A stretch of 64,000 nucleotides of DNA from a virus, in the IMG/VR virus record IMGVR_UViG_3300037189_014399, positions 32,001 through 96,000 of that record. The stretch is one strand, 5' to 3'. Every line of letters starts with the position of its first letter. Position 1 is the first letter of the stretch. The notes beneath the pieces are model-generated. The model was not told the origin of the DNA. It saw nothing but the letters and a program-made list of their open reading frames with translations, and did not search any database. The position numbers and the translations under genes were made by a program. Positions 7,790-56,972 of the stretch are shown here, piece by piece.

Positions 7790-8057
7790 GGTTTGGCCGA
7801 TCTACTGGTGTAGGTGCGAGAGCATACGTTCCACAGATAGCACACTCCATCTGTAGAAGGTATGAGGAGATCTCATAGTCAGCAAATGAAACTTTAAGGT
7901 TCCACAAGTTGCTTTCACACTTAGGACATTCATGGCATATAACATCTTCATACTCCATGGTGCCTGTGTAGTCAGGTTTGATTTCTCTAACTGACTTTGC
8001 GACTTGCTCTCCTTCTGATCCGCTTTCGGTCATTGTGATCCGTACCTCCCCACACAC
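7782..8057 (-). CDS. hypothetical Zn-ribbon protein
   Basis: CPKC...CAICG; true start uncertain. Confidence 0.6.
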   Translation of the reverse strand: MCGEVRITMTESGSEGEQVAKSVREIKPDYTGTMEYEDVICHECPKCESNLWNLKVSFADYEISSYLLQMECAICGTYALAPTPVDRPNLV

Positions 8058-8256
8058 CTAATAGACTTGAGTCAGACAAAGCATACTCTAAACATTCAAA
8101 CTTAATTGAACACCCCATGCATACAGCCTTTGCTGCCTGCACGGTTGCCAAGTACTTAGGGTCATCGTCTTCTGGAAAGAAGAGATCTGGATCTGCATCT
8201 AAGCATGCTTGATCTCCATTAAAAGGAGAAGTTGCCTGTATCGTAAGGATTTCCAT
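7987..8256 (-). CDS. whiB: WhiB-family Fe-S transcription factor
   Basis: C..D.DLFFP...AKAVCMGC....EC.EYAL....GVWGG; start moved to MEILT at 8256. Confidence 0.93.
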   Translation of the reverse strand: MEILTIQATSPFNGDQACLDADPDLFFPEDDDPKYLATVQAAKAVCMGCSIKFECLEYALSDSSLLGVWGGTDHNDRKRIRRRASRKVS

Positions 8257-27119: not shown

Positions 27120-28682
27120 TTACGCCGTAGCGTTTCCTGTGAGTTGTCCAAGCTTGATAACAATGAATTCGGCTGGGTACTCGAGAGCAACGCCTACTTC
27201 AATGTTAACAATGCCATTTTGAATATCAGCTTCTGAGTTATTAGTTCCATCGCAAATAACATAGAAAGCTTGCTGAGGTGAAGTTCCACGAAGACCGCCT
27301 TGCTGCCAGTATCCGCGTAGGAATGTATTGATGCCGGTACGAATACGTGACCACAAGATTGAGTCGTTGTTCTCAAAGAGAGCAAACTGACTGCGGTTAT
27401 CGAGTTCTGTCTTCAAGTACATCATTGAACGACGAACGTTGATGTAACGGTTTGAAGATGTATTGTTAAGTGTACGAGCACCCATAAGTACAATGCCTGC
27501 GCCAGGAACCTGACGGATTGCATTGATAGGTTCTGTGCCGGTGTTTAGTGTGTCTAAGTCTGTATTTGAAAGCTGAGTCTGTGTTGACACTGCTAATGCG
27601 ACACGGTTTCCAAAACCTGCTGGAGCCTTGAATACACCACGTGATGTATCTGTTGCCAAGAACTGACCAGCTGCAATAGCACCTGGGGCCTGTAGGCGTG
27701 TTGCTCCACGAGCAGCCTTTGTTGTATCTGGGATATTAACCCAAGGATAGTAGATTGCTGCTACTTCTCCATGGTTGTTTCCAGAGAAAGGTGAGGTTGA
27801 TTTTAGATCTGAAGCGTACTGTTTAGCATCTGAGACGGTTAATCCAGCAGGAACATCGCAGATTGCAAATGCATTGTCACGGCTAGCGCAGTAATCAACC
27901 ATGTCAGCTTGAAGCTGCATAGACAATGTGCGATCGGCTGAGCTTCCTGCAGTGTTGTAAACATAAGCAGCATTAGGAACGTTAAACACAAGTGGGTTCT
28001 TTACTGGATCAAACAATGTATATGCAGATGAGTAATTAGAACGTGTTGGTGTGCTTCCATCTAGGCCGCCAGTAAGAGCGTGAGGAACACCATCTGCCGT
28101 TGGGCGGTTATCTGGGGCAACAGAGGCTGAATTTTGATCAGTCAATGTAATGTAAGATGAAGATGCATTTACATATGAAATTGCATAACGTGGGTCTGTT
28201 TTTACCATGCTTAGATCAGCAAACTGTTCTACAAGAACGGTGTTTCCTGAAAGTGACTGGTATACATAAAGTGCAAAACGATTAGCAGCACCAGAGTCAA
28301 TAACTTGAACTGCAAAGTTATTACCCCAAGCTCCTGCGTTATTTGCCTTTACTAAAAGTGTAGCCAGTGCTGATTGTGAACGGTCTGTCAATACAACAGA
28401 TGCTTGTGCGGCGTTTGAACCGACTACACGCTTGATGTAGGCCTGGTTACCACCGTTAGCAAAAAAGTTATATACAGCCCAGGTCATTGGATAGGCGTCA
28501 TTGACATCGCCAAAGGTATCGACGAAGTTTCTCCAAGAACGTACTAGAACAGGTAACGCTGTTGAACCCATCGCTGCTGGGCCGACAAATGCGCCTACTG
28601 CTGATCCGTTGTCAGACAACTGAATCGTCTGAGCAACTGGTACCTCTTGTACATAGACACCAGGTCTACTAAATGTAGCCAT
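27120..28682 (-). CDS. contractile tail sheath protein
   Basis: RPGVYVQE, FFANGG..AY, YYPW, RGVFKAPAG, GARTL, YINVRR, FENN, PAEFIVI. Confidence 0.97.
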   Translation of the reverse strand: MATFSRPGVYVQEVPVAQTIQLSDNGSAVGAFVGPAAMGSTALPVLVRSWRNFVDTFGDVNDAYPMTWAVYNFFANGGNQAYIKRVVGSNAAQASVVLTDRSQSALATLLVKANNAGAWGNNFAVQVIDSGAANRFALYVYQSLSGNTVLVEQFADLSMVKTDPRYAISYVNASSSYITLTDQNSASVAPDNRPTADGVPHALTGGLDGSTPTRSNYSSAYTLFDPVKNPLVFNVPNAAYVYNTAGSSADRTLSMQLQADMVDYCASRDNAFAICDVPAGLTVSDAKQYASDLKSTSPFSGNNHGEVAAIYYPWVNIPDTTKAARGATRLQAPGAIAAGQFLATDTSRGVFKAPAGFGNRVALAVSTQTQLSNTDLDTLNTGTEPINAIRQVPGAGIVLMGARTLNNTSSNRYINVRRSMMYLKTELDNRSQFALFENNDSILWSRIRTGINTFLRGYWQQGGLRGTSPQQAFYVICDGTNNSEADIQNGIVNIEVGVALEYPAEFIVIKLGQLTGNATA

Positions 28683-30368: not shown

Positions 30369-30574
30369 TATTTTTTACCTTTCTTATGGGGGTTCTTCTT
30401 ATGCCATTCTTTAGTAGCTTTGACGCCTTGCTTTACTGTCTTAGCTCCGGCCTTCTCAGTAAGATTAATCTTATCCCACTTTGGGTCGTTCTTACCGGCG
30501 TGATCAACTATCACATCGCCTTTTTTATTCTTCTTGACCTCGTGGACCTTGCCACTAACTTTTATTTTTGCCAT
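30368..30574 (-). CDS. 68-aa Lys-rich protein
   Basis: ORF track; TAATG-coupled on both sides. Confidence 0.75.
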   Translation of the reverse strand: MAKIKVSGKVHEVKKNKKGDVIVDHAGKNDPKWDKINLTEKAGAKTVKQGVKATKEWHKKNPHKKGKK

Positions 30575-31902
30575 TATTGAGCCAAGTAACTTCCCGATAA
30601 GTTAAAGGTTGTAGAGGTAGCAAAGTTACCAAGAAGGTTTTTAGTCAATGGGTCAAGTACTAGCTTGTTTCCAGGACCACCTGCGCTCTGCCCGTAGAGG
30701 GTAATAGTTGTAGAGCCAGCGGTTGTTGTGCCCACAATTGGGTAGATGGTTCCACCGATATTGAGAGTGCCTGAGAGGCTTGATGGGCCATAAGCTGCAA
30801 CTGGCAGTGTGAGGGTATAGGCACCTGTTCCAAAGTTAGAGACGTTGGTGCAAGCAACTGCAATCTGGAATTGGATAATCTTGCCAGTTCTTGCGTAGTA
30901 GCTAGTAGTAGGTGTGCCACTAAAAATAAGACCAGTACCCGCCCATGTAGACGTGTAAGAGGTATTAGCTGGTGAGACGTAAGCTGTGGTCTGGCTAGTA
31001 GAGTCGTTATAGTTAACTGTAGTAACAGCTAGAGTAGGCAACTGAGCCTGAGCAATTCCGTCAATATTAAAAACACCGTTGTTAATGGTAATGCCGGCAT
31101 TACTACCTAATGATTGATCTGTAATATATATGGTTCCGGGCCCGACGTGTATAGACTTCCAACGAAGAGCATCTGAACCTAAGTTGTAGGTATTATCTAG
31201 GGCAGGAATTACATCCGTAGAAATATTATTAAGGCTGGCTGCTTGAGCAAAGACAATGTTGTCCGTGCCAATCTTAATGCCGTAATCAACCATAGTTCCT
31301 GTCAAACTCTCAAAGAACGTTTTGTTTCCATTAAGAGTTCCATAAAGAACAAGTACTTGATCGCCTTGAGATACTTGACCTTGAACACTATTATCATAAT
31401 CAGTAGCACGGGTAAGAATAGGTGTTAGACCAGCAACCATACGGGTTGCCACATAGATACCATTTTGTTTAGCATCTACTTGGTCTTTAATAAGAACACG
31501 GTCATTTGGAGCAATAGTGCGACTATCAAGTCCAATAACCCCCGGTGTAGTCGATGTAAAGTTTGCACCAACACCGGTTCCACCATCAGCGCCTGCGCTA
31601 CCTGCGTGGTAAGTCCAAACACCGCTAAGAGGTGCAGTAGTGGCAGCAACAACCGCAGCGTGAATATTGGTTGTGCCTGCAGGACCTGTAGGTCCTGTTG
31701 CTCCTACTGCTCCCGTGGATCCAGTGGCACCAGCTGGTCCAGTTGGGCCCACAGCTCCTGTGGATCCAGTTGGGCCAGTTGCTCCCGTTGCTCCTGCACT
31801 TCCTGCAGCACCTGTAGGTCCAGTCGTTCCCGTGTCACCCTTTGCTCCAACCGGTCCTTGTGGACCAACTCCTCCGCTATTTGAATAATGAATGTTTGCC
31901 AT
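30574..31902 (-). CDS. collagen-like fibre protein
   Basis: N-terminal Gly-X-Y run, DRVLIKDQ....QNGIY...LTRATDYD module, beta-rich C-terminal head. Confidence 0.8.
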
Positions 31903-32767: not shown

Positions 32768-33610
32768 TTATCTACCCTGACCTGTCAGGCCATGCAAGAT
32801 CTCTGATCTAACTATGTCTTTGATTCCCAAAGCATTTTGATATGGGAACCTATTTCTAGCTATCTTCTTTGGTGTCTCTATTAGGGCGTCTGAGTACTCG
32901 GCTAGTACCTCTACTCCGTACTCCTTGTACAGGGTTAAGATCGTATCTAGATCAGTATCAATACCAGAGCATACGTCGTAAGTAAGATTTGCTAGTCCAT
33001 CTAGGACTATGGATAAAGCAAGCACATTTATGTTAGCCACATCCATAACGTGAGAGTAATCTCTAGGGAATGTCTTTCTGTTCACTATAAAGGGTTTGCT
33101 GTCCCTTACACAGGATCTAATAACGTCAAATACATTCCCAACCTGGTATTGACTTGGAGGCTCTATTAAACCACCTACGTTAAAGTATCTAAGGATTATG
33201 TGATTAACTTTAGATTCTTTTAAGAGCTGTTCAAAAATAGACTTTGATCTTGAATAGGGATTTTCCCCATAGTAAACCGCAGCACTTGAAGCAAACACCA
33301 TGGGGATATTCAACTGCTCACAGACCCTTAATAGGTTTAGACTAGACACTAGATTATTAAAATAATACTCAGTAGGATTATTCTTTGAGTCAGGTATGCT
33401 TTTAAGTGCAGCCAAATGCAACACCGCCTTGATGTTATTAGTCACTATAAGATTATAGAGATCTTTATAATCTATTAAGTCTGTAGGGTTATTAGAATGG
33501 ATGTCTATAGGTAATGAGTTAGAAAGAAGACTTAAGGTAGCTCTTCCTATATACCCGTCTCCCCCAGTTATAAGAACCCTACTGTTGTTGCTTAAGGACT
33601 TCTGCTCCAT
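32768..33610 (-). CDS. NAD-dependent nucleotide-sugar epimerase (GalE-like)
   Basis: ITGGDGYIG, HLAALK, FASSAAVY, YSRSK (YxxxK), LRYFNV, RDYSHV.D.A. Confidence 0.88.
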   Translation of the reverse strand: MEQKSLSNNSRVLITGGDGYIGRATLSLLSNSLPIDIHSNNPTDLIDYKDLYNLIVTNNIKAVLHLAALKSIPDSKNNPTEYYFNNLVSSLNLLRVCEQLNIPMVFASSAAVYYGENPYSRSKSIFEQLLKESKVNHIILRYFNVGGLIEPPSQYQVGNVFDVIRSCVRDSKPFIVNRKTFPRDYSHVMDVANINVLALSIVLDGLANLTYDVCSGIDTDLDTILTLYKEYGVEVLAEYSDALIETPKKIARNRFPYQNALGIKDIVRSEILHGLTGQGR

Positions 33611-34496
33611 TAGACAGAATCCTTCCGTTTACAAAATCCAACCCACAGTAATCACCATAGTCTTTTAGACTTCGTTGTGTGCCAAGGCGATATTCCCCAG
33701 TCAGGGCTTCTGTTAAAACAAGTTTTATCTCATCTATAGACACTTGGTTTAGAGACGCACACAACTCTGGAAAATCTGGACACACCTGCCTACGTTTATT
33801 GTCCTTATCAGCTTCCCAATAAAGGTGGTACATAAACTGTCTGGTTGGAACCATTAAGGTATACCCCATAGTAAACGCACGAGCAGCCATAAAGATTTCT
33901 TCACCGTCAGCAAAGATAAGTTCATTAGGTTTCATAAACTCACCCTCTACAAATATGGATCCACCAGAGACGCTAAGTGAGGTGTGTAAAAATTCCTTTG
34001 GGGCATAAGATCCTTGCATAGGTGTTCTGAACAACTTAAATCGTTCTGGATCTTTCCAGTAGAACTGAGTAACTACATCCTCAACTTGCCTTACTACCTC
34101 ATTACCACCCTCATACCAGTATAGCTTTGGGTAGTTTGTTATAAGCGGTTTTTCTACACCCTCTGACTTATAAAAGTCCATAAGGTTTATTAAATAACTG
34201 TCCCAGTTCCTATCAAACCTACTATGAGAATCTACCTGTAAATAGTAATCCTCACCAGAATAAAATTGATGGGCTATAGCTCTTCCTTTACCCATACCTA
34301 AATTATCTGGAGCCTTACTGTAAAATACTTTTACATTTGGTAGGTTAGGAACCTCTATTGTGTTTTCTTCAAAGAAGATTGAGTGAACACCAAAGTTAAT
34401 CGTGTTAATTCCAGAAGCTTTTTCTATAGCATCAAAAATTGTCTTACTTAATTCTTGATCATGATAAGAAGTAATCTGTATGAAAATACTTTTCAT
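33579..34496 (-). CDS. GT60/Gnt1-like GlcNAc transferase
   Basis: SIFIQITSY.D.EL..TI.DA...A; G.G.GR.IA..FY.GEDYYLQVDSHSRF...WD; F..GEEI..AARAFT.GY...P.....HLY. Confidence 0.8.
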   Translation of the reverse strand: MKSIFIQITSYHDQELSKTIFDAIEKASGINTINFGVHSIFFEENTIEVPNLPNVKVFYSKAPDNLGMGKGRAIAHQFYSGEDYYLQVDSHSRFDRNWDSYLINLMDFYKSEGVEKPLITNYPKLYWYEGGNEVVRQVEDVVTQFYWKDPERFKLFRTPMQGSYAPKEFLHTSLSVSGGSIFVEGEFMKPNELIFADGEEIFMAARAFTMGYTLMVPTRQFMYHLYWEADKDNKRRQVCPDFPELCASLNQVSIDEIKLVLTEALTGEYRLGTQRSLKDYGDYCGLDFVNGRILSNGAEVLKQQQ

Positions 34497-35467
34497 TAGT
34501 CACTCCATACTGCGTGTGAGCAAGTAGTGCATAGTGTTTTAAATGAATGTTCTATCATCTCTATGCGCCGATTGCTTTCCCAAATCTCCTTTATAGAAGA
34601 GTCGTTTACGTTTCCAAAAACAGTTTCAAAGTCATAGTCATTACAGCAGATAAACACATCACCATTAGCGTTTACATGTAACCAGGTTTTGGTTCTATCT
34701 CCCATGTTAGTACAGCCAACAACCTTTGTTCCTTTTTTATTGTACCTTTCAATTGCTGGCATATTTGTCATTACTTTTGCTTTGTCTAGGTACCCGGCAC
34801 GATCAACTAACCCAATATTTGAAAACACATTAATGGTAGGAAAGATTCTTTTAAAATCTCTAAGGGCATTTGAAAGATCTCCAGTCTCAGGAGATAGATC
34901 TAAGACAGGCATATTTTCTAGGGGTTGCATCCATCCCCCATTTACAGGTAAAGACCTTTCATCAATTCCGTTTACTTGAATTGATAGCATATGGGCAGGA
35001 AGTTGAGACACCGCATAATTTAAATTATCCGTTACCCGGTTATGAATCTTTGGGTTCTTTCCAGTCATCCTTGACCATACCTCTGGATCTGCAGAGGGAA
35101 TATTAAAGTTAATTAGATCGACAACATCCTGATACTCTTTTATAAGATCAGTCTTCTCCGGTGTTAGGGGAATGCCATTTGTTAAAACCATAGTTCTAAG
35201 AGATAGTTCACGAAGTAGGTCCAGCATCCCATGAAAGTCTTTGTATAAAAGAACTTCGTTATAGTGCGCTGTATATACAAACGTAAACTGAGGGGAAACA
35301 AAATCTCCCATTCCCTCTTTAAGCTGGGTAAGGATACTTCTTACTGTCTCTAGTGGCATGTTCTTTCTTCCAACCTCAGGGTTGGGAGAGTATGCCACAG
35401 GACAAAACCAACAACCTGAATTACACAGGCCATTTGGATCTAGTTGAAGTAACTGAATCTGTGACAT
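34496..35467 (-). CDS. radical SAM enzyme with SPASM/twitch domain
   Basis: CNSGCWFC (CX3CX2C), LTNG, C-terminal C...NANGDVFICCND....GNV...IKEIW...CTTC. Start MSQIQ at 35467. Confidence 0.9.
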   Translation of the reverse strand: MSQIQLLQLDPNGLCNSGCWFCPVAYSPNPEVGRKNMPLETVRSILTQLKEGMGDFVSPQFTFVYTAHYNEVLLYKDFHGMLDLLRELSLRTMVLTNGIPLTPEKTDLIKEYQDVVDLINFNIPSADPEVWSRMTGKNPKIHNRVTDNLNYAVSQLPAHMLSIQVNGIDERSLPVNGGWMQPLENMPVLDLSPETGDLSNALRDFKRIFPTINVFSNIGLVDRAGYLDKAKVMTNMPAIERYNKKGTKVVGCTNMGDRTKTWLHVNANGDVFICCNDYDFETVFGNVNDSSIKEIWESNRRIEMIEHSFKTLCTTCSHAVWSD

Positions 35468-35471
35468 TAAG

Positions 35472-36080
35472 TTAATTCCACCACGCAACTACGGCATATC
35501 GAAGTCCTGAGATTACAGGGTGTACGCTATGGTTATAGATGTAGTTAGATGGAAACATAATCATTTGATTAGCTTTTGGTTTAATCTTTAAACCAAATCT
35601 AGGGAATTCAATTTCCCCACCTTCATAGTCTTCATTAAGATAGAAGCTCATAGATACTGTTCTTGGAAAGGCCCTAGAATCATCAAAGTGATTTATAAAG
35701 TGATTGTCTTTTCCATACTTAAGTATCTGCCAACCTTCTGATACGTACCATTGTCCTGCAGCATGACTGTTCTTATAGTGAAGGATGGCTTCATTAAGTT
35801 CCTCATTTAAAAGATCATGAAGAGCAAGCATGGCTCCACCACTTGTGTTTCTAAGCTCTGGATTGGCATCGTATGCCGGCAATGACATTACTTTACAATC
35901 ACGAATGCTCTTTACAGCTTTTGGTGAGTCTTCCTCCTGCCCGCTGCTTTGGTTAGCTTCAGCCCAAGCTAGGTTATTGATCTCTACTAGCCCTTCAAGG
36001 TCTGAAATAAAACCAGCGGGATCAGACATAACATTGGTGTAACTAACAATACCTGGTGCTAGTACTTCTACCTCAAACAT
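35472..36080 (-). CDS. 2OG-Fe(II) oxygenase, prolyl 4-hydroxylase-like
   Basis: QILKY...HF..HFD (HxD), YLNEDYEGGEIEF, IKPK....IMFPS...Y.HSV.PV.SG.RY. Confidence 0.9.
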   Translation of the reverse strand: MFEVEVLAPGIVSYTNVMSDPAGFISDLEGLVEINNLAWAEANQSSGQEEDSPKAVKSIRDCKVMSLPAYDANPELRNTSGGAMLALHDLLNEELNEAILHYKNSHAAGQWYVSEGWQILKYGKDNHFINHFDDSRAFPRTVSMSFYLNEDYEGGEIEFPRFGLKIKPKANQMIMFPSNYIYNHSVHPVISGLRYAVVAWWN

Positions 36081-36312
36081 CTACTTTGCCCCACTTTCCA
36101 ATTGGACATTCTGCTCCTGGAAGAGTTGTTTTAATCTTCATAAAGCATCCGCACTTCTTGCATTGTTTTGTAAGTTTAATAAGTTCTGGACATGCTTGAC
36201 ACATACCCCATCGCTCCTCATACACAGCATCGCTTACTCGTTCCGCTGTTGTAATAAGGTCCCAAGGTCTAGTTTCACCAAGGTTCTTCTTATAATCTTC
36301 CCATCTAGACAC
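36073..36312 (-). CDS. small Cys-rich protein
   Basis: CQAC...CKKCGCFM..K......CPIGKW. Confidence 0.75.
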   Translation of the reverse strand: MSRWEDYKKNLGETRPWDLITTAERVSDAVYEERWGMCQACPELIKLTKQCKKCGCFMKIKTTLPGAECPIGKWGKVDV

Positions 36313-36685
36313 TAGCTATTACCTCCTTGAATTCGCCGTTTACATAGCTCCAACCAGGGACTATAGCTGAAGAGTAACCAGTATCGATAGAAACGTCAAT
36401 TACTGTAGGCTCTGAAGAAAGAATTGCCCACATTTTTTCATCACATTGGATGGTTTCAATCTCTTGTTTATCCTTTATAACATCCACATAAAAAAGAGGA
36501 GGTGTTACAGGAAGTTCCTTGAATCGATCTGCGGTAAGCAAAAGGTTGGCTGCATCTACCTCAAGTGCTAGGACCTCGGCAACCTCATTGCCTACAATAA
36601 AGGCTACAGCTCTTGATGGTATTCCTTGAAGTTTCTTTTCTACTGCGGAATCGCCGGATCGTATATGGTCTTTTAATATAAACAT
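36305..36685 (-). CDS. hypothetical protein (possible fibre assembly factor)
   Basis: Duplicated AxL motif, C-terminal GW.Y..G.F; directly downstream of the 808-aa gene. Confidence 0.55.
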   Translation of the reverse strand: MFILKDHIRSGDSAVEKKLQGIPSRAVAFIVGNEVAEVLALEVDAANLLLTADRFKELPVTPPLFYVDVIKDKQEIETIQCDEKMWAILSSEPTVIDVSIDTGYSSAIVPGWSYVNGEFKEVIASV

Positions 36686-36710
36686 TTAATGCCTTTCGTC
36701 TAGTAGAAGT

Positions 36711-39137
36711 TTAGCACGCTCCACCAGAACCATATGAGCCCTGACAACAGCTTGTACAGGTACATGGGTTAGATGGGTTTGCATAGTCTGCAGAGGTACA
36801 TCTATAGTTGCCTGAGGATGCAGGAGTAGAGGTTGGTGCCGGAGTGCTTGTTGCTGGAGCATAATCTCCCTGGCAGATATTAGGGCAAGAGCCAGGAGTA
36901 ATACACCAAGTACCGTTTCCATAAGTTCCGCAAGCCCCACCGTAGCTAACGCATGTTGAGCATGAGGTGGCTGTAGGGGCAGGAGTAGATGTTGCAGTAG
37001 GAGTAGGAGTTGGATTACATGCTGGGCAGTTAGTGTAATTATAATCCGCACAACCTGAAGCTGTTCTACAAATAATATAAGTATTACCGCAAGCATCTCC
37101 GCAAGACATTGTTTCGTAAGCTGGGTGTGATCCCCATCCTACGCAAGCACTGCAATTTGTGGTAGAAGTAGGTGTAGGAGTAGAAGTAGAAGTCGCTGTG
37201 GGTGTGGGGGTAGGTGTAGGCGTTGATGATAAACAATACTGGAACTGTCCAGAAGTACATACATATGTTAACCCTAAGTCACTACATGTATTAGTTGTTG
37301 ATCGTGTAGAGGTGTAAGATCTTCCATCATTTGGAGGACATGCAGAAGTAGGAGTAGGTGTAGAAGTAGTTGTAGTAGTTGGTGTAGGTGTAGGTGTAGA
37401 TTGTGGTCCGCAGTTTGCAACAGGACCTGAAGTATTAAACCCGAATACATAACCAGAGCCGCCACAGTCAGCGTTAGCTACTTGTCGTCCAGTTGTATTG
37501 TAGCTGTTATAAGCCCCGTCACTATATTGACCTGGGTTACCACAGCAGTAATAGTAAGTAGTTGTAGGAGCAGGAGTAGATGTAGCTGTAGGAGTAGGAG
37601 TAGGTGTAGAAGTAGTTGTAGAAGTAGCCGTTGGTGTAGGTGTTGGAGTAGAGCCTGAACAGTTCTTACTCTGACATGATGGGTATCCAGATGTACTGTA
37701 TGAAAGCGATGAGTAGCTACCGCAGTTTCCTACAAACGTTGCTACCATCTCGTTATAGGTGTTTCCTGAGAACTGGGCGCAGTATCCATCGCAACAAGCA
37801 GTTCCGTAATAGGTTGTTCCACCAGAAGTTGGAGTAGGTGTAGCAGTAGCAGTAGCCGTTGGAGTAGGAGTAGGGGTAGAAGTAGTACATGTGTACGGGT
37901 TACTGTATCCCTGAGTACACGTAGTTGAGTAACCAGTTCCTGATCCAGATTGGTTTGCAGAATATGGACCAGATAATGAACAACCAACAGGTGTTGACTG
38001 AACATAAGTAATGCAGTAGTACCCATAGGTTGAAGTAGCTGTAGGAGTAGGAGTAGGTGTAGGAGTTACCGCTCCTGGACAGTTACCTGGGTAACCTGAA
38101 GTTAATACGTTATAGCCTAATGAAGGACAGTAGGTGTAAGCCGAAGTAGCTGTAGGAGTAGGAGTAGGGGTAGGCGTTGAAGTACAAGTACCGTTAACTT
38201 GATACTGTGCGTAATAACTTGGACTATATGTACCGCCACTAAATGTAGTTTGACCACATACCCAAGAGCTAATAGATGTTGATCCTGAAATACTGCTGTA
38301 AGCTTCTGCGCAGTATGCACTTGCGCTGCTGTAACCAAACAAAGTAACATCAATGCCGTCGTATCCATTTGACCCTGAAGACGTACAATACCCATAGGAT
38401 ACGTATATAGATCCTGTTGTAGGTGTGGGTGTGGGGGTAGGTGTTGGCGTAGATGTGCCTGATGATGCGGTGGTAAAAGATGTAGGTGCGCTACCGCATG
38501 CTGTTCCATTTAAGTAGCCAATAAGCGTTGCAGTGTAATTAGTTGCTGCACTTAATCCTGAAACAAGGATAGGCAAAGAAGAGCCAGTAGCAACGATACT
38601 TCCACCAATACTTACAGCAACTGAAGTATAAGCCTGAGTATTTCCAGTTATATAGGCAGCGTTTGTCGTCCAAGCCTGGCCTGCTCCGGCACCGTAAGCA
38701 GTTGCAGAGCTAATACATGAACCACCAGTTGTAGGTGTGGGGGTAGGAGTAGATGTAGCAGTTGGAGTAGGTGTAGGAGTAGGGGTAACTGTCGGAGCAA
38801 TATAATTATAATAAGTAAGATCAACTACCTGTGCAGATAGGTAGTATCCAGAGGCTACGCTCTGAGTAATGATCTGTTGATTATTTCCTGAAGTTGCTCC
38901 GGATGTAACTGCTGTAGAAGTCCCTACAGTATTTCCTGAAGAGGTAATTGCTGTAGTTGCAGCAGATAAAGTAGATCCGACTACGTTAGGTACTGTAACC
39001 GGAGGAACAAGAACTTGTCTCCATACAGTGTTATTTTTTGCATAGCCGTAGGTAACGCTACGCCAAGTACCATTTACTTTGACGTATGCCCTGTAGAGTG
39101 TTCTCCAGGTACCATTGATGCGTACATTACCGGCCAT
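36711..39137 (-). CDS. modular Cys-rich, (Thr-Pro)n-linked fibre/adhesin with PASTA-like domain
   Basis: NGTWR repeat N-terminus; VTVPNVVG...IITQS PASTA-like segment; FN3-like SGLSAATNYT; 10 TP linkers; 46 Cys. Confidence 0.75.
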   Translation of the reverse strand: MAGNVRINGTWRTLYRAYVKVNGTWRSVTYGYAKNNTVWRQVLVPPVTVPNVVGSTLSAATTAITSSGNTVGTSTAVTSGATSGNNQQIITQSVASGYYLSAQVVDLTYYNYIAPTVTPTPTPTPTATSTPTPTPTTGGSCISSATAYGAGAGQAWTTNAAYITGNTQAYTSVAVSIGGSIVATGSSLPILVSGLSAATNYTATLIGYLNGTACGSAPTSFTTASSGTSTPTPTPTPTPTTGSIYVSYGYCTSSGSNGYDGIDVTLFGYSSASAYCAEAYSSISGSTSISSWVCGQTTFSGGTYSPSYYAQYQVNGTCTSTPTPTPTPTATSAYTYCPSLGYNVLTSGYPGNCPGAVTPTPTPTPTATSTYGYYCITYVQSTPVGCSLSGPYSANQSGSGTGYSTTCTQGYSNPYTCTTSTPTPTPTATATATPTPTSGGTTYYGTACCDGYCAQFSGNTYNEMVATFVGNCGSYSSLSYSTSGYPSCQSKNCSGSTPTPTPTATSTTTSTPTPTPTATSTPAPTTTYYYCCGNPGQYSDGAYNSYNTTGRQVANADCGGSGYVFGFNTSGPVANCGPQSTPTPTPTTTTTSTPTPTSACPPNDGRSYTSTRSTTNTCSDLGLTYVCTSGQFQYCLSSTPTPTPTPTATSTSTPTPTSTTNCSACVGWGSHPAYETMSCGDACGNTYIICRTASGCADYNYTNCPACNPTPTPTATSTPAPTATSCSTCVSYGGACGTYGNGTWCITPGSCPNICQGDYAPATSTPAPTSTPASSGNYRCTSADYANPSNPCTCTSCCQGSYGSGGAC

Positions 39138-39965: not shown

Positions 39966-40307
39966 CTATGAAAGTTCTGAACCGAATGCTTGGAAAGCTA
40001 AACCTGTACTTGATGAATAAACTCCAACAACGTCATTTGTTGCAAGGGTAAGACCTACGGTATAGGTAGTAGTTGTATTTGCTGGAATGGTTGTTCCTGA
40101 TGCAAAGTACTGTTTTGTTGACAGAGTAGCTCCACCCTGACGAATAGCAATGCTGTAAGTAGCAGCTGAAGAGGTTGTGTTGCAAACTGAGATTGTGGAA
40201 AGTACAGCGCCTGTCTTTGGAGAAGCTACAGTGTAGAGGGCCACCTCTGTAGAGGCTGATCCACTAGTAGGGTTAGCCTGCCCCAAGATCTTATAAGCTG
40301 TTGCCAT
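39966..40307 (-). CDS. small virion structural protein
   Basis: MATAYKILGQ, ISVCN, IPANTT, AFGSE; resembles 46887..47189. Confidence 0.6.
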   Translation of the reverse strand: MATAYKILGQANPTSGSASTEVALYTVASPKTGAVLSTISVCNTTSSAATYSIAIRQGGATLSTKQYFASGTTIPANTTTTYTVGLTLATNDVVGVYSSSTGLAFQAFGSELS

Positions 40308-41385
40308 GTTTCTCCCCTAAATAAAAAGCTAGATTTGATTTTAGACGTTGATCGTTTGGACTTAATTGTAACGCTTCAGACCCATATTTAATGGCTTTCT
40401 CCAAATGATCTGCTTTTTCTTCTCTAGTTTCTACAGACTTATACAAGTTAAAATGAGAAATTGCAGCATAGTCGTGGGGGAGACTGCCCCAGGCAAACTC
40501 CTCACATAGATACTCCAAAGGCTTTTCTGTAATCTTTAGGGCCATTTCCGCTACCTGGTAGCAGGCAGTGCTCCATCCGGTCTCATAGTAATAACCAGCA
40601 AGCTCTACTAAAGCCTCTCTTCTATCGGGGGCTTCGTCGTACGCCTTGCGTAACCACTCATGACGCTCTTCACCTTCAGATAGCTTTGCTATATATCTCA
40701 TTGAGGCTGCACGTTCTGGTTTCCATAGTGCTCCTGGCAGAGATAGATGACGTAGGAACTCAGCCTTAGCTTCCTCAGCTTTGCCATAGAAGTAAAGTTC
40801 TCTGGCATAGTAGAAGGCGTTGCGATCATCGTTTGGATCTTCAACTACAGATTGAGCTAACAGGGGAAGGTATTGCCCACGGGACTTAGAGTTATCTGGG
40901 TAGTGGTGGATCTCAAGATCACACCATTCCTGGGTCTCAGGTATGCGGTCAGATACAAGGACTTCGTGTACCGGATGCTTCCACCTATAGCCCTTACGAG
41001 CATGGATCTTATCTCCGCCGTATTGAAGGCCTGGAGTGCCGTCTTCATTCCAAGACCAAGTGTACTTGTATCGAACTCTAGTTGCCTCGGTGGATTCCAA
41101 TTGGGTACGCCAACCAGGTAAGAAAACCTCATCCATATCTAAGGCTACACACATGTCAATGTCTGCTGGCAAAGCAGCCAGAGATGCATTACGTGCGTCA
41201 TCAAAACGCCAAGGATTGATTGTAATAGAGATTGTATTTATGCCAAGCTTATTGGCAAGCTCTACGGTTCCATCTGTGGAGCCAGTATCGGCTATAAGGA
41301 GGTAGTCTGCCTCTTTAGCAGATTCAAACCATCGCTCTACAAACTGTGATTCGTTTTTAGCAATGGTATATACGGCTATTTTCAT
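40291..41385 (-). CDS. GT2 glycosyltransferase with TPR repeats
   Basis: IAKNE, DTGSTDGT, FDDARN, LDMDE (DxD), PVHE; helical TPR-like C-half. Confidence 0.9.
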   Translation of the reverse strand: MKIAVYTIAKNESQFVERWFESAKEADYLLIADTGSTDGTVELANKLGINTISITINPWRFDDARNASLAALPADIDMCVALDMDEVFLPGWRTQLESTEATRVRYKYTWSWNEDGTPGLQYGGDKIHARKGYRWKHPVHEVLVSDRIPETQEWCDLEIHHYPDNSKSRGQYLPLLAQSVVEDPNDDRNAFYYARELYFYGKAEEAKAEFLRHLSLPGALWKPERAASMRYIAKLSEGEERHEWLRKAYDEAPDRREALVELAGYYYETGWSTACYQVAEMALKITEKPLEYLCEEFAWGSLPHDYAAISHFNLYKSVETREEKADHLEKAIKYGSEALQLSPNDQRLKSNLAFYLGEKHGNSL

Positions 41386-50942: not shown

Positions 50943-51485
50943 CTAGATTAAAGTGATCGGTGCGATCACCGAGGTAGTAGTTGTTACATTTACATTGTTA
51001 ATGTTCTTAGGGAAGTAAAATCCTGTACCTAAGAATGCATCAGCAATGACTTTTTGATTAAGATTAGTATCTCCAGACGTACCTGCAGGGCCTGTAGCTC
51101 CCCTTGATCCACCGCGTATTAGTATAGCCCAATATGTAGGGGTTAGGTCTGGATCTTTGTTCGTGTTATCTTGAAGAGCAATATACGTGTTATTGTCATC
51201 GTAGGGGATTACTGTTCCCTTTGGATAAAAAGTAGTTGAATTCCAAGTTTGCACTACTTGAGTAATACCAGTACCGGCAGGACCTGCCGCACCAGCTACA
51301 CCAGCAGGACCTGTAGGACCTTGTACACCAGATGAATAAGAAAGTTGAGTCCAGGTAGATGTTCCATTACCTAACTTAAACTTTCCTGTATCTAGCTCAA
51401 GACCCAATTCACCTTCTGCAAGGATTGGGTTTGCAGAGGTCCATTGAGCTGCTGATCCACGTCTAAATTGAACTTGAACGGCCAT
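50943..51485 (-). CDS. short fibre: Mtd/hyaluronidase-like N-domain, collagen, CBM5/12-like motif
   Basis: QFRRG.AAQWTSANPILAEGE.G.E.DTGKFK.GNG; short Gly-X-Y; WN...Y..G......Y.A.......P.....W. Start MAVQV at 51485. Confidence 0.75.
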   Translation of the reverse strand: MAVQVQFRRGSAAQWTSANPILAEGELGLELDTGKFKLGNGTSTWTQLSYSSGVQGPTGPAGVAGAAGPAGTGITQVVQTWNSTTFYPKGTVIPYDDNNTYIALQDNTNKDPDLTPTYWAILIRGGSRGATGPAGTSGDTNLNQKVIADAFLGTGFYFPKNINNVNVTTTTSVIAPITLI

Positions 51486-54259
51486 TAGATTCCTCCACAA
51501 TCAAGATTTGTTAATCCACCATATGTACTTGTTGGTGAGCCTGCATCAATGTTGACAATGCTACTACCTGCAGGGCCTGTAGGTCCTTGTGAACCTGTTG
51601 CACCTGTTGGTCCTTGTGCACCAGTCGGTCCAGCTACTGTAGATGCAGCACCAGTTGGTCCTGTTGGTCCTTGAATATTTCCTGTGTTAAGCCACTGAGC
51701 AGTAGTAATAGACCAGATGTAAAGATTAGTTCCAACAATGTATGCATCTCCTGCAGCACCGGTTGGGTGTGCAGCCTGTAATGCAGATAAGGTTGTGTAG
51801 TTTCCAAGGATGTTGATGCCTGTTCCTTGAGGTCCAGTAGCACCTGTTGGACCAGTTGCACCAGCAAATCCTTGAGCACCTTGTAGGCCTTGTGGACCCG
51901 TAGGACCAACATTACCTTGTGAGCCTTGAGGACCAGTTGCACCAGTTAAACCGGTAGCACCTGTAGGACCAGTAATACTTAATCCTTGTGGTCCTGTTGC
52001 ACCAGTAGGTCCAACATTACCAATAGGTCCTGTAGCACCAACAGGTCCTTGAACACCTGTAGGGCCAAGAGGGCCTTGCGGACCGGTTGATCCTGTAGGA
52101 CCAGTTACACCTTGAATACCCTGAGGTCCGGTAGGGCCAGTTACAGTAGATGCTGCACCTGTAGGACCAAGAGGGCCTTGCGGACCGGTAGGACCAGTGG
52201 GTCCGATACCACCAGTAGCAGTAAAGTTAAGGACGTCAACGCCAATAACAATGCTTTGCTCAAAACCTGAACCCTTTTGATATTGAATAAATGAACGACT
52301 ATTGCCGTTTAGATTTCCAAGTTGAATAGAAAGATAGTCACCAGCAGTTGCCTCAGCAACAACGCTTCCATCGTAATCTGTTGCACGAGTAAGGATGTTT
52401 GGTGTACCAGAATTTGAATCATAAACAGTTGTTAACTTATAGATACCATTCTGACGTGCATCAGTTTGATCTTTAACAAGAATACGATCACCAAGACTTG
52501 GTGTAAATCCGTCAACAATAAGAGTAGACATTGCAGTAAGTGTGAGCGTTGCTCCAACACCATATCCACCGTCCCCACCTAATGTACCTGGGGTATACGT
52601 GCCGGCAAGATTTGTAGTGGTTGCTACACGTGCAGAGTTGTGTGCGTTTGAGGTTCCTGCAGGACCGATAGGACCAGTATCACCCTTAGCGCCAGTCGCA
52701 CCAGTTGCTCCTGCCGCACCTTGAGGACCAATAGGTCCCTGAGCACCAGTAGGTCCTGTTGCACCAGTAGCACCGGCGCCTGTAGGTCCAACTGCACCAG
52801 TAGGACCAGTAGGTCCTTGTGGACCTGGAACTGCTGAGTCAGCACCCTTAGGGCCTGTTGCACCCGTTGCACCGGTAGGTCCAATAGCACCAATTGGTCC
52901 TGCTTGACCTGTTGGGCCTTGCGGACCTGTCGGTCCTTGTGCACCAGCTGGGCCTTGTGTACCTTGAGAACCAGTAGCACCAACAGCGCCTGTAGCACCA
53001 GTGGGACCAACCTGTCCCTGAATACCCTGTGGGCCTGTTGAACCTGTTGCGCCTGTTGGGCCAGCAGGTCCGGTAGCACCAGTTGCTCCTGTGTCTCCCT
53101 TAGCGCCAGTAATACCTTGTGGGCCTTGAGGACCGGTGGCACCTGTTGCACCAACGTTTCCTTGTAAACCACCAGGACCTGTAGGACCGATGTTTCCTTG
53201 AGGACCAGTTGCGCCAGTTGCGCCAACAGCACCTGTTGCACCTACTGGGCCCTGTAATCCAGTATCACCCTTAAGTCCTTGTGCTCCTTGTGGACCTGTT
53301 GGTCCAGTTGCACCGGTTTGACCAATGTCACCCTTAGGACCAGTTGCACCTGTTGCACCAGCTTGTCCTGTAGAACCAGTAGGTCCTTGAATGTTTCCAA
53401 CACTTACCCACGCACTGCTGTTAACAGACCATACGTAAAGTGTTCCTGCAACTAAATACGATTGACCAGCAGATCCTGTTGGACGTGCTGTTTGTAAATC
53501 TTGAAGTGTGCTGTATGAACCAAGAATGGTTACAGAGGTACCGGCAGGGCCCTGTGCACCAGTAGCACCTGTAGGACCGGCAGGTCCTTGAGATCCGGTT
53601 GAACCAGCTGGGCCTGTAGGACCAGCATCACCACGAGCACCAGTTGGACCCGTTGCACCAGAAAGACCAATAGCACCAGTTGCACCCTGTGCACCGGTTG
53701 CACCCGCAGGACCTTGAGGTCCTTGTGCACCAGTTGGTCCAACTGGACCCTGTGCACCAGTAGGTCCTTGTGCACCGGTATTGCCTTGATAGCCCTGTGC
53801 ACCAGCAGGACCTGTGGCACCTGTAGCACCTACAGTTCCACGATCACCAGCTAGTGAGATTGACCATCCATAAAATGTGTCACCGATTTCACCAGCAGCA
53901 AAATCAGGACGAATAACAATTCTGTATCCACCTGTGTAAGGTGAGATAGATGTAATTAAACCTTCAATGTATGTTGCAACTGCGCCTGTTGCATTTGCAC
54001 GAACACGATTGCCTGCAACATATGCGCCTGTAGATGGCACAATAAATTCTGCTGTAGCGTATTGAGATCCAAATCCAACAACAACTCCAGTATTAGAAGT
54101 TAGGGCTGCATAACCAGCGCCTGTTGCTCCGGTAGGACCGGTTGGGCCAGTAGGACCTGTTGCTCCTGGAATACCACGAGGACCAGTAGCGCCACCGCCA
54201 CCACTGCCTGATGAGCCACGGCTATATCCGCTTAGATCGGGGAAATCAAAATTAGTCAC
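51485..54259 (-). CDS. long collagen-like fibre (924 aa)
   Basis: Several long Gly-X-Y runs (GPT/GAT/GPQ) interrupted by globular modules. Confidence 0.9.
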
Positions 54260-55895: not shown

Positions 55896-56972
55896 TTAGT
55901 TGGTTTCTGCAATAATTACAGACTGGTCAGTAATTAGACCAAGACCGTAGATTGCGTACCAAGCAAGTGCGTGCTCACGACCGAAGTCCAAGATACCGCC
56001 GTCACGAAGTTCCACAGGAAGTGAAATAGCGTGACCGAATGCGTTATCACCGATAAAGATTGCTGAGTAGCGATCTGAACCGCCGTTACCTGTCTTGGTT
56101 GTTGGAGATGTGTATCCACCACCAGTTGGGTAAACGATTGATCCTGGAGCAACAGCTGAGTCAGTTGTGTAGTTTGTACCAGCTCCACCTGGGACCTTCT
56201 GGATCTGTGTTGTCTCAATGAATACTACGTCGTACAAACGACCGATTTCACCAAGCATGAAGTTTCCTGGAGCAGCGTACTTAGTGACTTCAATAAATTC
56301 TGGATTGTCACGGAGCTTACGGCTCTGGTGTGGGTGTACGAATGCAACGTATGTCTCGCCAAGACGTGGGATGTTCTTGGTTGCGAGGGTCTCGACTGCG
56401 TCCTTAACAGTTGCAGTTGTGAGAGCGAAGTTGCCGGTCATTGAAGCTCGTGATGAGCCCTTTGTGCCGTAGTCGTACCAGTTATTGACTGCGTTAGCAG
56501 ATGTGCGGTCATAACCGTAGATAACTGAAGATGCGGCCATGAGTGTGTCACGAGCCTGTCCATCTAGGTATAGGGCCATGTTGCGGCCAAGTAGACGAGA
56601 AGCAGAAGCCATCACGTCATCGAATGATGCGTTGAGGAGCAATTCAGAAACGGCAATGCCATATCCGTGCTCTGCAACGGTGATTGAGAACTGCTGTGCT
56701 GTCAAAGCGTTAGTTGTCATACGGACACCTTCAACAAGTGCTGAAGCGAATCCGAGGTTGTTATAACGCATGAAGTTGATCTGGAGACCAGGTGCGACAT
56801 TCAATTCAGTCTTCTTAACAGCGAACTGTTCGAAGCGTAGGATTGGCATGGACTGGAACAAGATTTCCTTGGACCAGATGACCTGGATCGCCTGTGTAAG
56901 CTGGCTATTAGCGCCAGAATACGCTGTTGGGGCAGCGGCTAAATTGCCGGTACCAGTTACGGCTGATGCCAT
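55896..56972 (-). CDS. major capsid protein (N4-gp56-like)
   Basis: WSKEIL....P.LRFEQFA, L.EG, EHG, HPHQ..LR, GEIG....V.FIET, DFGR...LAWY; follows scaffold. Confidence 0.92.
   Translation of the reverse strand: MASAVTGTGNLAAAPTAYSGANSQLTQAIQVIWSKEILFQSMPILRFEQFAVKKTELNVAPGLQINFMRYNNLGFASALVEGVRMTTNALTAQQFSITVAEHGYGIAVSELLLNASFDDVMASASRLLGRNMALYLDGQARDTLMAASSVIYGYDRTSANAVNNWYDYGTKGSSRASMTGNFALTTATVKDAVETLATKNIPRLGETYVAFVHPHQSRKLRDNPEFIEVTKYAAPGNFMLGEIGRLYDVVFIETTQIQKVPGGAGTNYTTDSAVAPGSIVYPTGGGYTSPTTKTGNGGSDRYSAIFIGDNAFGHAISLPVELRDGGILDFGREHALAWYAIYGLGLITDQSVIIAETN

Follow-up and report, generated by a model that had tools for sequence, protein, structure and literature searches.

Our preferred reading, which we hold to be reasonably probable, is that this phage encodes its own post-translational tailoring, in the host cytoplasm, of an 808-aa mucin/extensin-like protein (TP808), by two separable modules, Thr O-glycosylation and Pro hydroxylation, that would act on its (Thr-Pro)n linkers to give a stiff stalk. 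The GT60 glycosyltransferase would O-glycosylate linker Thr, probably with HexNAc, and a zinc-ribbon protein, DUF6171, would work alongside it; the GalE-like epimerase and the radical SAM enzyme, which resembles the sugar-acting BtrN and DesII, would supply or alter the sugar; and the P4H-like oxygenase would hydroxylate linker prolines. The outcome would be a stiff, hydrophilic, protease-resistant stalk that displays small Cys-rich modules on the virion. The direct findings are the gene content, the conserved synteny, the covariation between enzymes and linker makeup, the natural fusions and the fold assignments; the chemical steps, the sugar and the location on the virion are predictions.

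Layout of the cassette and its presumed substrate

The features in the window (the whole 64-kb stretch of DNA that was analysed) are:

32768..33610, minus strand: SDR NAD-dependent epimerase/dehydratase, GalE-like, 280 aa (PF01370, 88 bits)
33579..34496, minus strand: soluble GT-A glycosyltransferase, PF11397 'GlcNAc' (CAZy GT60), 305 aa (profile match)
34496..35488, minus strand: Radical_SAM + SPASM enzyme (profile match)
35472..36080, minus strand: P4H-like 2OG-Fe(II) oxygenase (profile match, 2OG-FeII_Oxy_3, PF13640, 58 bits)
36073..36312, minus strand: DUF6171 CxxC protein (profile match, PF19668, 31 bits)
36305..36685, minus strand: g126, 126-aa small protein of no known family (conserved position)
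36711..39137, minus strand: TP808, 808-aa mucin/extensin-like protein, presumed acceptor (composition, linkers, upstream equivalents in related loci)
40291..41385, minus strand: GT2 + TPR glycosyltransferase (phrog_13126), possible extra member four genes upstream of TP808

The first seven ORFs, all on the minus strand, lie where the first-pass annotation had placed them; the gene content, order and tight packing that it described held up, and profile searches returned the domains that it had named. TP808 is followed by a 25-nt gap; the cassette genes after it are packed edge to edge, with overlaps or abutments of 8, 8, 17, 1 and 32 nt. TP808 sits in the virion-structural module, with fiber genes on one side and the tail sheath on the other, and from this gene position we infer that it is carried on the virion. 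The host of this uncultured freshwater phage is probably actinobacterial, judging by three WhiB genes.

TP808 is 21% Thr and 9.7% Pro and has 46 Cys; no other ORF in the window has a low-complexity tract rich in T/P that reaches 20 aa. Its ten TP-type linkers, (TP)n, separate modules whose Cys count is even throughout (0, 2, 4, 2, 4, 6, 4, 4, 14, 6); it also has an N-terminal repeat (NGTWR, three times), a PASTA domain (47-108), an FN3-like module, and Cys as its last residue. Its equivalents are located upstream of the cassette in related loci. Members of the g126 family, which share a C-terminal W-(S/T)-(Y/W)-x-G-x-F motif, always fall between the fiber gene and DUF6171 (21 loci by jackhmmer), and g126 may be a fiber chaperone.

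Assignment of the enzymes

The GT60 scored 106.2 bits against PF11397 (cut-off 21), and 86.3 bits in the genome search. The residues D89-x-H91 and H224 do not vary among 16 diverse homologues and, by analogy rather than by structure, would make up the catalytic/metal site. Searches found at least 240 homologous proteins and, separately, at least 478 viral contigs in IMG/VR. Known acceptors in this family include Thr, in mucins of T. cruzi and Dictyostelium, and Hyp, in Skp1 (PMC3769586, PMC6939170).

In the oxygenase, the iron triad H131-x-D133...H184 and the basic 2OG-binding R194 are intact, and these residues are conserved across 49 homologues. Foldseek ranks 1-7 for its AF2 model (pLDDT 86) were taken by DdPhyA, Cr-P4H, vCPH and PHD2 (TM 0.57-0.71); the best match was Dictyostelium PhyA, the Skp1 prolyl hydroxylase, and the top matches included Chlamydomonas P4H with (SP)5 peptide, PBCV-1 vCPH and B. 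anthracis P4H. The first-pass call of a P4H-like enzyme is supported by the PF13640 match, the intact catalytic residues and the prolyl hydroxylases that come first among structural matches. That its substrate would be peptidyl proline is indirectly suggested by the association with linker Pro described below.

The likely start of the radical SAM enzyme is the ATG at 35467. Its cluster motif CX3CX2C (C15, C19, C22, all invariant; PF04055, 47.5 bits) begins at residue 15 (residue 22 of the TTG-started ORF), which leaves no room for an N-terminal domain, and neither Pfam nor NCBIfam found an RRE/PqqD-like domain there. The C-terminal SPASM/twitch-type domain (PF13186, 47 bits) has five invariant Cys versus the seven of the SPASM motif. 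The nearest folds to its model (pLDDT 90) were BtrN, DesII, SuiB and anSME; BtrN, the closest, has a single-cluster twitch domain, and the match to the peptide maturases SuiB, anSME and SkfB was nearly as good as that to the sugar enzymes. In both seeded sets of loci described below the enzyme was found only with GT60, always directly upstream of it. The epimerase is a short extended SDR with GxxGxxG and YxxxK, scoring 94.5 bits against the GalE equivalog TIGR01179, under the cut-off of 262.3.

DUF6171 is zinc-ribbon-like, with about 76 aa, six invariant Cys and a C-terminal CPIGKW. The first-pass annotation was silent on its role and on the coupling of the radical SAM enzyme to GT60. Some phages have natural DUF6171-GT60 (PF11397) fusions of 394-402 aa. 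Complex prediction for DUF6171 with GT60 gave 0.55 versus 0.02 for the best control, a value that the tool itself rates as weak support; in these runs partner pLDDT was at least 73 and contact agreement at least 57%. DUF6171 is therefore offered here as a candidate docking or accessory domain for tailoring enzymes. A bolder version, which we put forward tentatively and think rather doubtful, makes it a portable docking domain that would recruit interchangeable enzymes (GT60, P4H-like, sulfotransferase-like and others) to Cys-tipped mucin-like fibers, a modular eukaryote-like 'mucin/extensin factory' in the bacterial cytoplasm of hundreds of freshwater phages' hosts, with linker Thr versus Pro co-evolving with the enzyme set; an unusual sugar modified by the radical SAM enzyme may be part of this scheme.

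Recurrence in viruses and bacteria

We collected 80 viral loci seeded on GT60 and 79 seeded on the oxygenase, the latter from a scan that hit at least 460 IMG/VR contigs. The GT60-seeded loci have a fixed gene order: fiber, small protein, DUF6171, optional 2OG oxygenase, optional radical SAM enzyme, GT60, optional epimerase. The oxygenase-seeded loci run from a Pro-rich Cys-rich protein to DUF6171 to the 2OG oxygenase. Since the same order is found in 80 + 79 other viral loci, the arrangement in our window is far from chance. DUF6171 is the constant companion (68/80 GT60-seeded and 68/79 oxygenase-seeded loci); the epimerase lies downstream of GT60 in 34 of the 80 GT60-seeded loci, GT60 is also present in only 16 of the 79 oxygenase-seeded loci, and the phrog_13126 glycosyltransferase accompanies the cassette at 10 GT60-seeded and 5 oxygenase-seeded loci.

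The first-pass annotation had asked whether P4H and GT60 genes track T/P-rich Cys-rich genes, and in viral loci they do: among ORFs of the 80 GT60-seeded loci, 64 that are T/P-rich with at least four Cys are located 1-9 genes upstream of GT60, versus 4 of 1017 ORFs elsewhere. Its proposal that substrate, hydroxylase, transferase and sugar-nucleotide enzyme form one cassette likewise stands: the cassette is conserved, and its neighbor is a mucin/extensin-like Cys-rich protein. The evidence that ties these enzymes to that substrate is strong. The trio of substrate, oxygenase and GT60 turns up independently in bacteria as well: in one Patescibacteria MAG and one Rhodospirillales MAG, TadE-like pilins with (TPAP)n adjoin GT60 and an oxygenase of the PF13640 family. 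In Pseudoduganella and Sterolibacterium, the protein encoded immediately upstream of GT60 has (TETPAP)n or (TTTAAP)n. A literature search found no publication describing GT60 adjoining Thr-rich phage fibers.

Linker composition and enzyme set

Composition was compared over 77 non-redundant loci, 41 with the oxygenase and 36 without. Linkers are Pro-rich (about 40% Pro) in the 41, whether GT60 is present or absent, and Thr-rich (about 53% Thr, median Pro 11%) in the 36, which have GT60 and no cassette oxygenase; linker Pro reached at least 25% in 37 of the 41 versus 1 of the 36, figures that ignore phylogeny. The oxygenase occurs without GT60, beside Pro-rich repeats, in 23 of the non-redundant loci, and both enzymes occur in 18. 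Because GT60-only loci (36) and oxygenase-only loci (23) both exist, the two enzymes are separable, and they look like independent tailoring modules for one substrate class, both present in this window.

The association with the oxygenase extends over divergent lineages: GT60s from loci that have an oxygenase belong to two or more deeply separated clades. Among the GT60-seeded loci alone, those with the oxygenase make up one clade. Exceptions to the trend are the Pro-rich linkers without oxygenase of L058-L063 and Pseudoduganella L118, and the Pro-poor linkers despite oxygenase of L234; the L039-L049 clade has a different, 161-aa oxygenase type and Pro-poor linkers. As these phages carry up to about eight 2OG oxygenases per contig, some of the oxygenase-substrate adjacency could be incidental.

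Alternative explanations

An unlikely alternative is a relay like that on Skp1, in which the P4H would make 4-Hyp in the linkers and GT60 would then add alpha-GlcNAc/GalNAc to Hyp only, giving an extensin-like stalk with Hyp-O-glycans. It gains from the PhyA-like fold of the oxygenase, from Gnt1 being a soluble cytoplasmic GT60 like the phage enzyme (PMC6939170), from the sharing of an operon by the two genes, in this window as in 18 non-redundant loci, and from the divergent 2OG-GT60 gene pairs of SAR86 genomes. Such a relay predicts obligate co-occurrence of the two genes, because GT60 action depends on prior hydroxylation; PhyA is strictly required by Gnt1, yet 36 loci, whose linkers have 53% Thr and 11% Pro, carry GT60 and no cassette oxygenase, and a further 23 carry the oxygenase and no GT60, so that the obligate order of Pro to Hyp to GlcNAc advanced by the first-pass annotation is not supported. 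The GT60-only loci therefore point to a non-Hyp acceptor for GT60 in most lineages, and by analogy with the T. cruzi and Dictyostelium enzymes Thr would be the more economical one.

It is less probable still that the enzymes target something other than TP808, its adjacency reflecting only shared late expression; the target might then be collagen-like tail fibers, a (PAPEPA)n stalk protein that is secreted and encoded elsewhere in the genome, glycans of the host cell wall, or nucleotide sugars. Collagen-like fibers are indeed encoded nearby (51485-54259 and 30574-31902), a second Pro-rich protein is encoded at G000:C1:23086-24993, and 2OG oxygenases and glycosyltransferases are common phage auxiliary genes. 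However, collagen-like genes are equally frequent in loci with and without the oxygenase, and their Gly-X-Y triplets carry Pro at X and Thr/Gln at Y, with no Pro at Y; positional enrichment and compositional covariation favor the adjacent protein, and the identical pairing is found in unrelated bacteria. We give equally little credence to a RiPP-like cross-linking core, in which the radical SAM/SPASM enzyme and DUF6171 would install thioether or other links in the Cys-rich modules as substitutes for disulfides, whose formation the cytoplasm precludes, with glycosylation secondary. The substrate modules are Cys-rich, even in Cys count and often Cys-terminated, and the radical SAM enzyme has weak NCBIfam matches to peptide maturases and model matches to SuiB, anSME, SkfB and CteB; but about half of the GT60 loci and every locus without GT60 lack it, although their Cys-rich modules are of the same kind; the enzyme has five conserved auxiliary Cys where SPASM has seven and no RRE domain by Pfam or NCBIfam, and its best fold matches are sugar-acting enzymes.

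Significance

If tailoring of the linkers by separable Thr and Pro modules is confirmed, phages would be seen to build mucin-/extensin-type glycoproteins with their own enzymes in the bacterial cytoplasm, joining Thr O-glycosylation to proline hydroxylation, a chemistry held to be eukaryotic. Operon and neighboring substrate gene together offer a test bed for GT60 acceptor specificity (Thr versus Hyp), for a P4H that is encoded by a virus and whose partner is known, for DUF6171 as an orphan family and for a glycosyltransferase-coupled radical SAM enzyme. The system is abundant, each marker being found on at least 460-478 IMG/VR contigs. In lakes, glycan-coated stalks could influence how phage particles adsorb, withstand proteases and stick; the enzymes might also be tools for producing mucin-like polymers in bacteria.

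Comparison with known systems

Virion protein glycosylation is described for mycobacteriophages Che8, Corndog and Myrna (Freeman et al. 2023, via PMC12363180). As summarized there, an actinobacteriophage's own glycosyltransferases likewise O-glycosylate virion proteins, but they belong to other families, their targets are the C-terminal tails of capsid and tail-tube proteins, and P4H, radical SAM enzyme, DUF6171 and mucin-like Cys-tipped fiber do not figure in it. Chlorovirus PBCV-1 and algal/plant P4Hs, whose substrates are Pro-rich repeats and extensins (PDB 5c5t, 3gze), share with our system the combination of a virus-encoded P4H fold and repetitive Pro-rich sequence; the phage oxygenase differs in being bacteriophage-encoded, in its genetic linkage with both the glycosylation genes and the presumed substrate, and in a sequence identity of only about 20%.

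The Skp1 PhyA-Gnt1 pathway of Dictyostelium and Toxoplasma (PMC6939170) similarly encodes a cytoplasmic prolyl hydroxylase together with a soluble GT60, and DdPhyA is the best structural match; in the phage cassette, however, a repetitive stalk would take the place of a Skp1-like single-site substrate, and the enzymes are not obligately coupled across loci. In protists, mucin-type O-glycans are initiated on Thr (PMC3769586) by polypeptide alpha-GlcNAc-transferases of GT60 (TcOGNT-2 of T. cruzi, Gnt2 of Dictyostelium), which have in common with the phage enzyme the PF11397 family, Thr-rich mucin-like acceptors and a DxH-type metal motif. Those enzymes are Golgi membrane proteins, whereas the phage GT60 is a soluble 305-aa protein predicted to act in the bacterial cytoplasm and, unlike them, is paired, and sometimes fused, with DUF6171.

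Cassette composition and its mucin-like neighbours

All seven open reading frames described in the first-pass annotation are present with the domains it gave them: on the minus strand, an 808-aa Thr/Pro-rich, Cys-rich fibre-like protein (TP808), a 126-aa protein (g126), a CxxC protein of family DUF6171 (PF19668), a prolyl 4-hydroxylase (P4H)-like 2OG oxygenase (PF13640), a radical SAM enzyme (rSAM), a GT60 glycosyltransferase (PF11397) and an SDR epimerase. The presumed acceptor, TP808 (36711-39137), is 21% Thr, 13.5% Ser, 9.7% Pro and 5.7% Cys, lacks a signal peptide, ends in Cys and contains ten TP linkers, with 0, 2, 4, 2, 4, 6, 4, 4, 14 and 6 Cys per inter-linker module; no other ORF in the window has a T/P-rich tract. 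An Atlas search with its Cys-rich C-terminus gave no usable match, and PHROG and Pfam searches with fibre proteins, g126 and accessory ORFs of variant cassettes mostly found no family.

The cassette and its link to an adjacent mucin-like protein are real and widespread. At least 240 GT60 homologues were found in a 5.8-billion-protein set, many on contigs of 60-120 kb, and a GT60 relative turned up on at least 478 IMG/VR contigs. The best 80 loci keep one order: T/P-rich Cys-rich protein, small protein, DUF6171 (68 of 80), optional 2OG oxygenase, optional rSAM (42 of 80), GT60 and optional epimerase (34 of 80). The T/P-rich Cys-rich proteins of these 80 loci span 70-1280 aa with varied N-terminal domains; common to them are mucin-like repeats (TTTTAAP, TPTP, PPPIIAT, YAPSPY) and then a small Cys-rich module, often Cys-terminal. 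Mucin-like Cys-rich ORFs numbered 64 at one to nine genes upstream of GT60, against 4 among the 1017 ORFs in the rest of these loci, so the co-occurrence of enzymes and T/P-rich Cys-rich genes proposed earlier as a check is borne out.

Many of the short mucin-like proteins open with a conserved (M/V)SPLFRxPSGIGV immediately ahead of the repeats (loci L012, L013, L016, L017, L020, L022-L025, L028, L080, L229 and L243), which may serve as a tag for virion attachment or enzyme recognition. In one clade (L039:3408-6401, L040, L044, L047-L049) the mucin-like Cys-rich proteins carry a conserved C-terminal segment of ~90 aa whose final residues, FFVSGILIHNK, resemble a Hint/intein-like C-terminal block; directly 3' of these proteins the L039-L049 clade has a distinct 2OG oxygenase of 161 aa. 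On phage contigs L075 and L077, ~7-8 tandem paralogous 2OG-Fe(II) oxygenase genes adjoin the GT60 cassette.

Oxygenase and GT60 as separable modules

The P4H-like assignment of the oxygenase held up well. Its catalytic residues are kept (H131-x-D133, H184, R194), its best solved relatives by sequence are Bacillus anthracis P4H, PHD2 and PBCV-1 P4H, and the first structural matches to its AF2 model (pLDDT 86) are the prolyl hydroxylases DdPhyA, Chlamydomonas P4H, PBCV-1 vCPH and PHD2. The GT60 has invariant D89-x-H91 and H224, and a PDB sequence search with it found no match; its family is known to include Gnt1, which is specific for Hyp, as well as mucin initiators that are specific for Thr (PMC6939170, PMC3769586).

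In the first-pass annotation these two enzymes formed a relay, in which the P4H makes Hyp and GT60 then adds sugar to it. In the GT60 tree the ~200-aa cassette oxygenase and Pro-rich linkers mark one well-supported clade of 19 rows, the window included, where Pro makes up 21-49% of linker residues, versus 7-11% (with Thr at 40-71%) in the sister lineages lacking the oxygenase. A reciprocal scan seeded with this oxygenase clade (A5) reached at least 460 contigs, and the 79 loci fetched have the order Pro-rich Cys-rich protein, DUF6171 (68 of 79), oxygenase, with GT60 also present in only 16 of the 79. In the remaining loci most of the other genes lack annotation; an SDR epimerase is present, and in some cases a carbamoyltransferase or JmjC-like protein. 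Linker composition was then compared over 77 non-redundant loci pooled from both scans.

Linker composition by enzyme content (loci; median Pro; median Thr)
GT60 only: 36 loci; 11%; 53%
Oxygenase only: 23 loci; 40%; 32%
GT60 + oxygenase: 18 loci; 41%; 38%

The oxygenase clearly follows linker Pro content, which was at least 25% in 37 of 41 loci with the oxygenase and in 1 of 36 without it (Mann-Whitney p ~1e-12, a value that ignores phylogeny). The GT60s from the oxygenase-seeded scan fall into deep, separate clades, so the association between oxygenase and Pro is not restricted to one GT60 lineage. Exceptions are L058-L063 (linker Pro 25-30%, oxygenase absent), L234 (oxygenase present, linker Pro 7%) and the L039-L049 clade, whose different 161-aa oxygenase accompanies Pro-poor linkers. 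The enzymes thus behave as two separable modules, and the occurrence of GT60 without oxygenase in 36 loci and of oxygenase without GT60 in 23 makes sugar addition to hydroxylated Pro the less likely chemistry. Thr glycosylation by GT60 running parallel to Pro hydroxylation by the oxygenase fits the comparative data better; here as for the rest of the cassette, we infer the chemistry.

Genes of the GT60-less oxygenase cassettes (L200:12025-13464, L223:9162-9680 and the orf19x family, e.g., L229:4032-4604) include the carbamoyltransferase, the JmjC/cupin-like protein and several conserved ORFs without a Pfam family, one of them for a 190-aa protein 3' of the oxygenase in 49 loci; all are candidate new tailoring enzymes.

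Accessory proteins

The rSAM has a CX3CX2C motif and five invariant Cys at its C-terminus. Its model (pLDDT 90) is nearest to BtrN and DesII, which are both sugar-acting enzymes, and then to SuiB, anSME, SkfB and EpeE. In both scans rSAM was confined to GT60 loci and always lay directly upstream of GT60. From its nearest structures and this placement we consider participation in the sugar branch somewhat more likely than not, and give peptide cross-linking roughly a one-in-three chance. The epimerase, previously called GalE-like, is an extended SDR that falls under the GalE equivalog cut-off.

Six Cys are invariant in DUF6171 (C-x2-C-x9-C-x2-C-x-C-x12-C), which ends in CPIGKW and accompanies both enzyme types, GT60 and oxygenase. 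An Atlas structure search with it led to a 395-aa PF11397 protein, and a follow-up search confirmed that DUF6171 and PF11397 are naturally fused in proteins of 394-402 aa, encoded on phage contigs as long as 111 kb. Complex prediction for DUF6171 with GT60 gave 0.55, against 0.02 for the best control, a result classed by the tool as weak support. In the tool's own counts 58 of the 80 solved complexes reached its mark, as did 2 of the 110 mismatched pairs; at 0.60 or less it was reached by only 7 of the 80 and by both mismatches. The partners had pLDDT values of 73 or more, and 57% or more of the contacts agreed between runs. We read DUF6171, of which the searched literature makes no mention, as an accessory or docking domain.

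Two further apparent fusions, g126-DUF6171 in P0130 and rSAM-DUF6171 in metagenome protein P0136, were tested and rejected. In P0136 (347 aa) DUF6171 is instead fused to a ~270-aa domain with no Pfam match and a 'HIAKTGGT' motif; its 'KTGGT' resembles a PAPS-binding motif and, at motif level, suggests a sulfotransferase-like domain.

Phage genome, host and other possible substrates

The window covers bases 32001-96000 of an IMG/VR phage genome that is 104,858 bp long and has direct terminal repeats. Nearly every gene is encoded on the minus strand, and together they make up a myovirus structural module:

60431-62083, terminase
57907-59619, portal
55896-56972, major capsid protein (71-73% identity to the Streptomyces phage BRock group)
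51485-54259, minus, collagen-like fibre protein (175 Gly-X-Y triplets)
30574-31902, minus, collagen-like fibre protein (23 Gly-X-Y triplets)
27120-28682, tail sheath
other module genes: large fibre or virion proteins, a peptidase-bearing tape-measure-like protein and a baseplate wedge

Three WhiB-family genes (window 8020-8211, minus strand; whole-record G000:C1:4904-5107 and G000:C1:30522-30746), a PASTA domain in TP808 and a G+C content of 44% point to a low-GC actinobacterial host, probably freshwater. Among GenBank phages, blastn with the region and tblastn with rSAM gave no match, and GT60 had four matches only, at ~25% identity in Xanthomonas/Stenotrophomonas jumbo phages; there is thus no close model among cultured phages. 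A promoter/terminator scan found nothing exceeding shuffled background.

Genome-wide, one strongly Pro-rich protein exists besides TP808, a secreted or anchored stalk protein that is a possible P4H substrate and the only other one:

G000:C1:23086-24993, plus, (PAPEPA)n stalk protein, 7.0-8.9 kb ahead of the window start

Its open frame of 635 residues runs from a signal-peptide-like N-terminus through an FN3-like domain and PT/PS linkers to a long stalk of 44% Pro and a hydrophobic C-terminal anchor. The collagen-like triplets (GPT, GAT, GPQ) have mostly Pro or Ala at X and mostly Thr or Gln at Y; since Pro stands at X, not Y, and these fibres do not covary with the oxygenase, we set them aside as P4H targets. 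Their Thr at Y might be an additional site of glycosylation.

Independent recurrence in bacteria and comparison with known systems

PF11397 genes of GTDB genomes share 24-31% identity with the phage GT60, and several adjoin similar repeat proteins. In Pseudoduganella (L118), Sterolibacterium (L153) and others, the gene immediately upstream of GT60 encodes a (TETPAP)n or (TTTAAP)n protein, and in two MAGs both GT60 and a PF13640 oxygenase adjoin the gene of a TadE-like pilin that has (TPAP)n and Cys:

L087:3425-4240, TadE-like (TPAP)n pilus protein, Patescibacteria
L116:8280-9137, TadE-like (TPAP)n pilus protein, Rhodospirillales

SAR86 genomes have a conserved divergent pair of a PF13640 oxygenase (~206 aa) and a PF11397 glycosyltransferase (~330-350 aa) with no obvious T/P-rich protein nearby (L088, L092, L095, L096, L100, L105-L107, L112, L113, L115, L123, L126, L132, L133 and L138), a possible bacterial counterpart of PhyA/Gnt1.

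The literature searched does not describe the phage cassette or its link to the mucin-like protein, and its sole mention of GT60 in phages is a CAZy tally given in passing in one virome preprint. Going by what PMC12363180 relates from Freeman 2023, the closest demonstrated phage case is the glycosylation of mycobacteriophage capsids and tail tubes.
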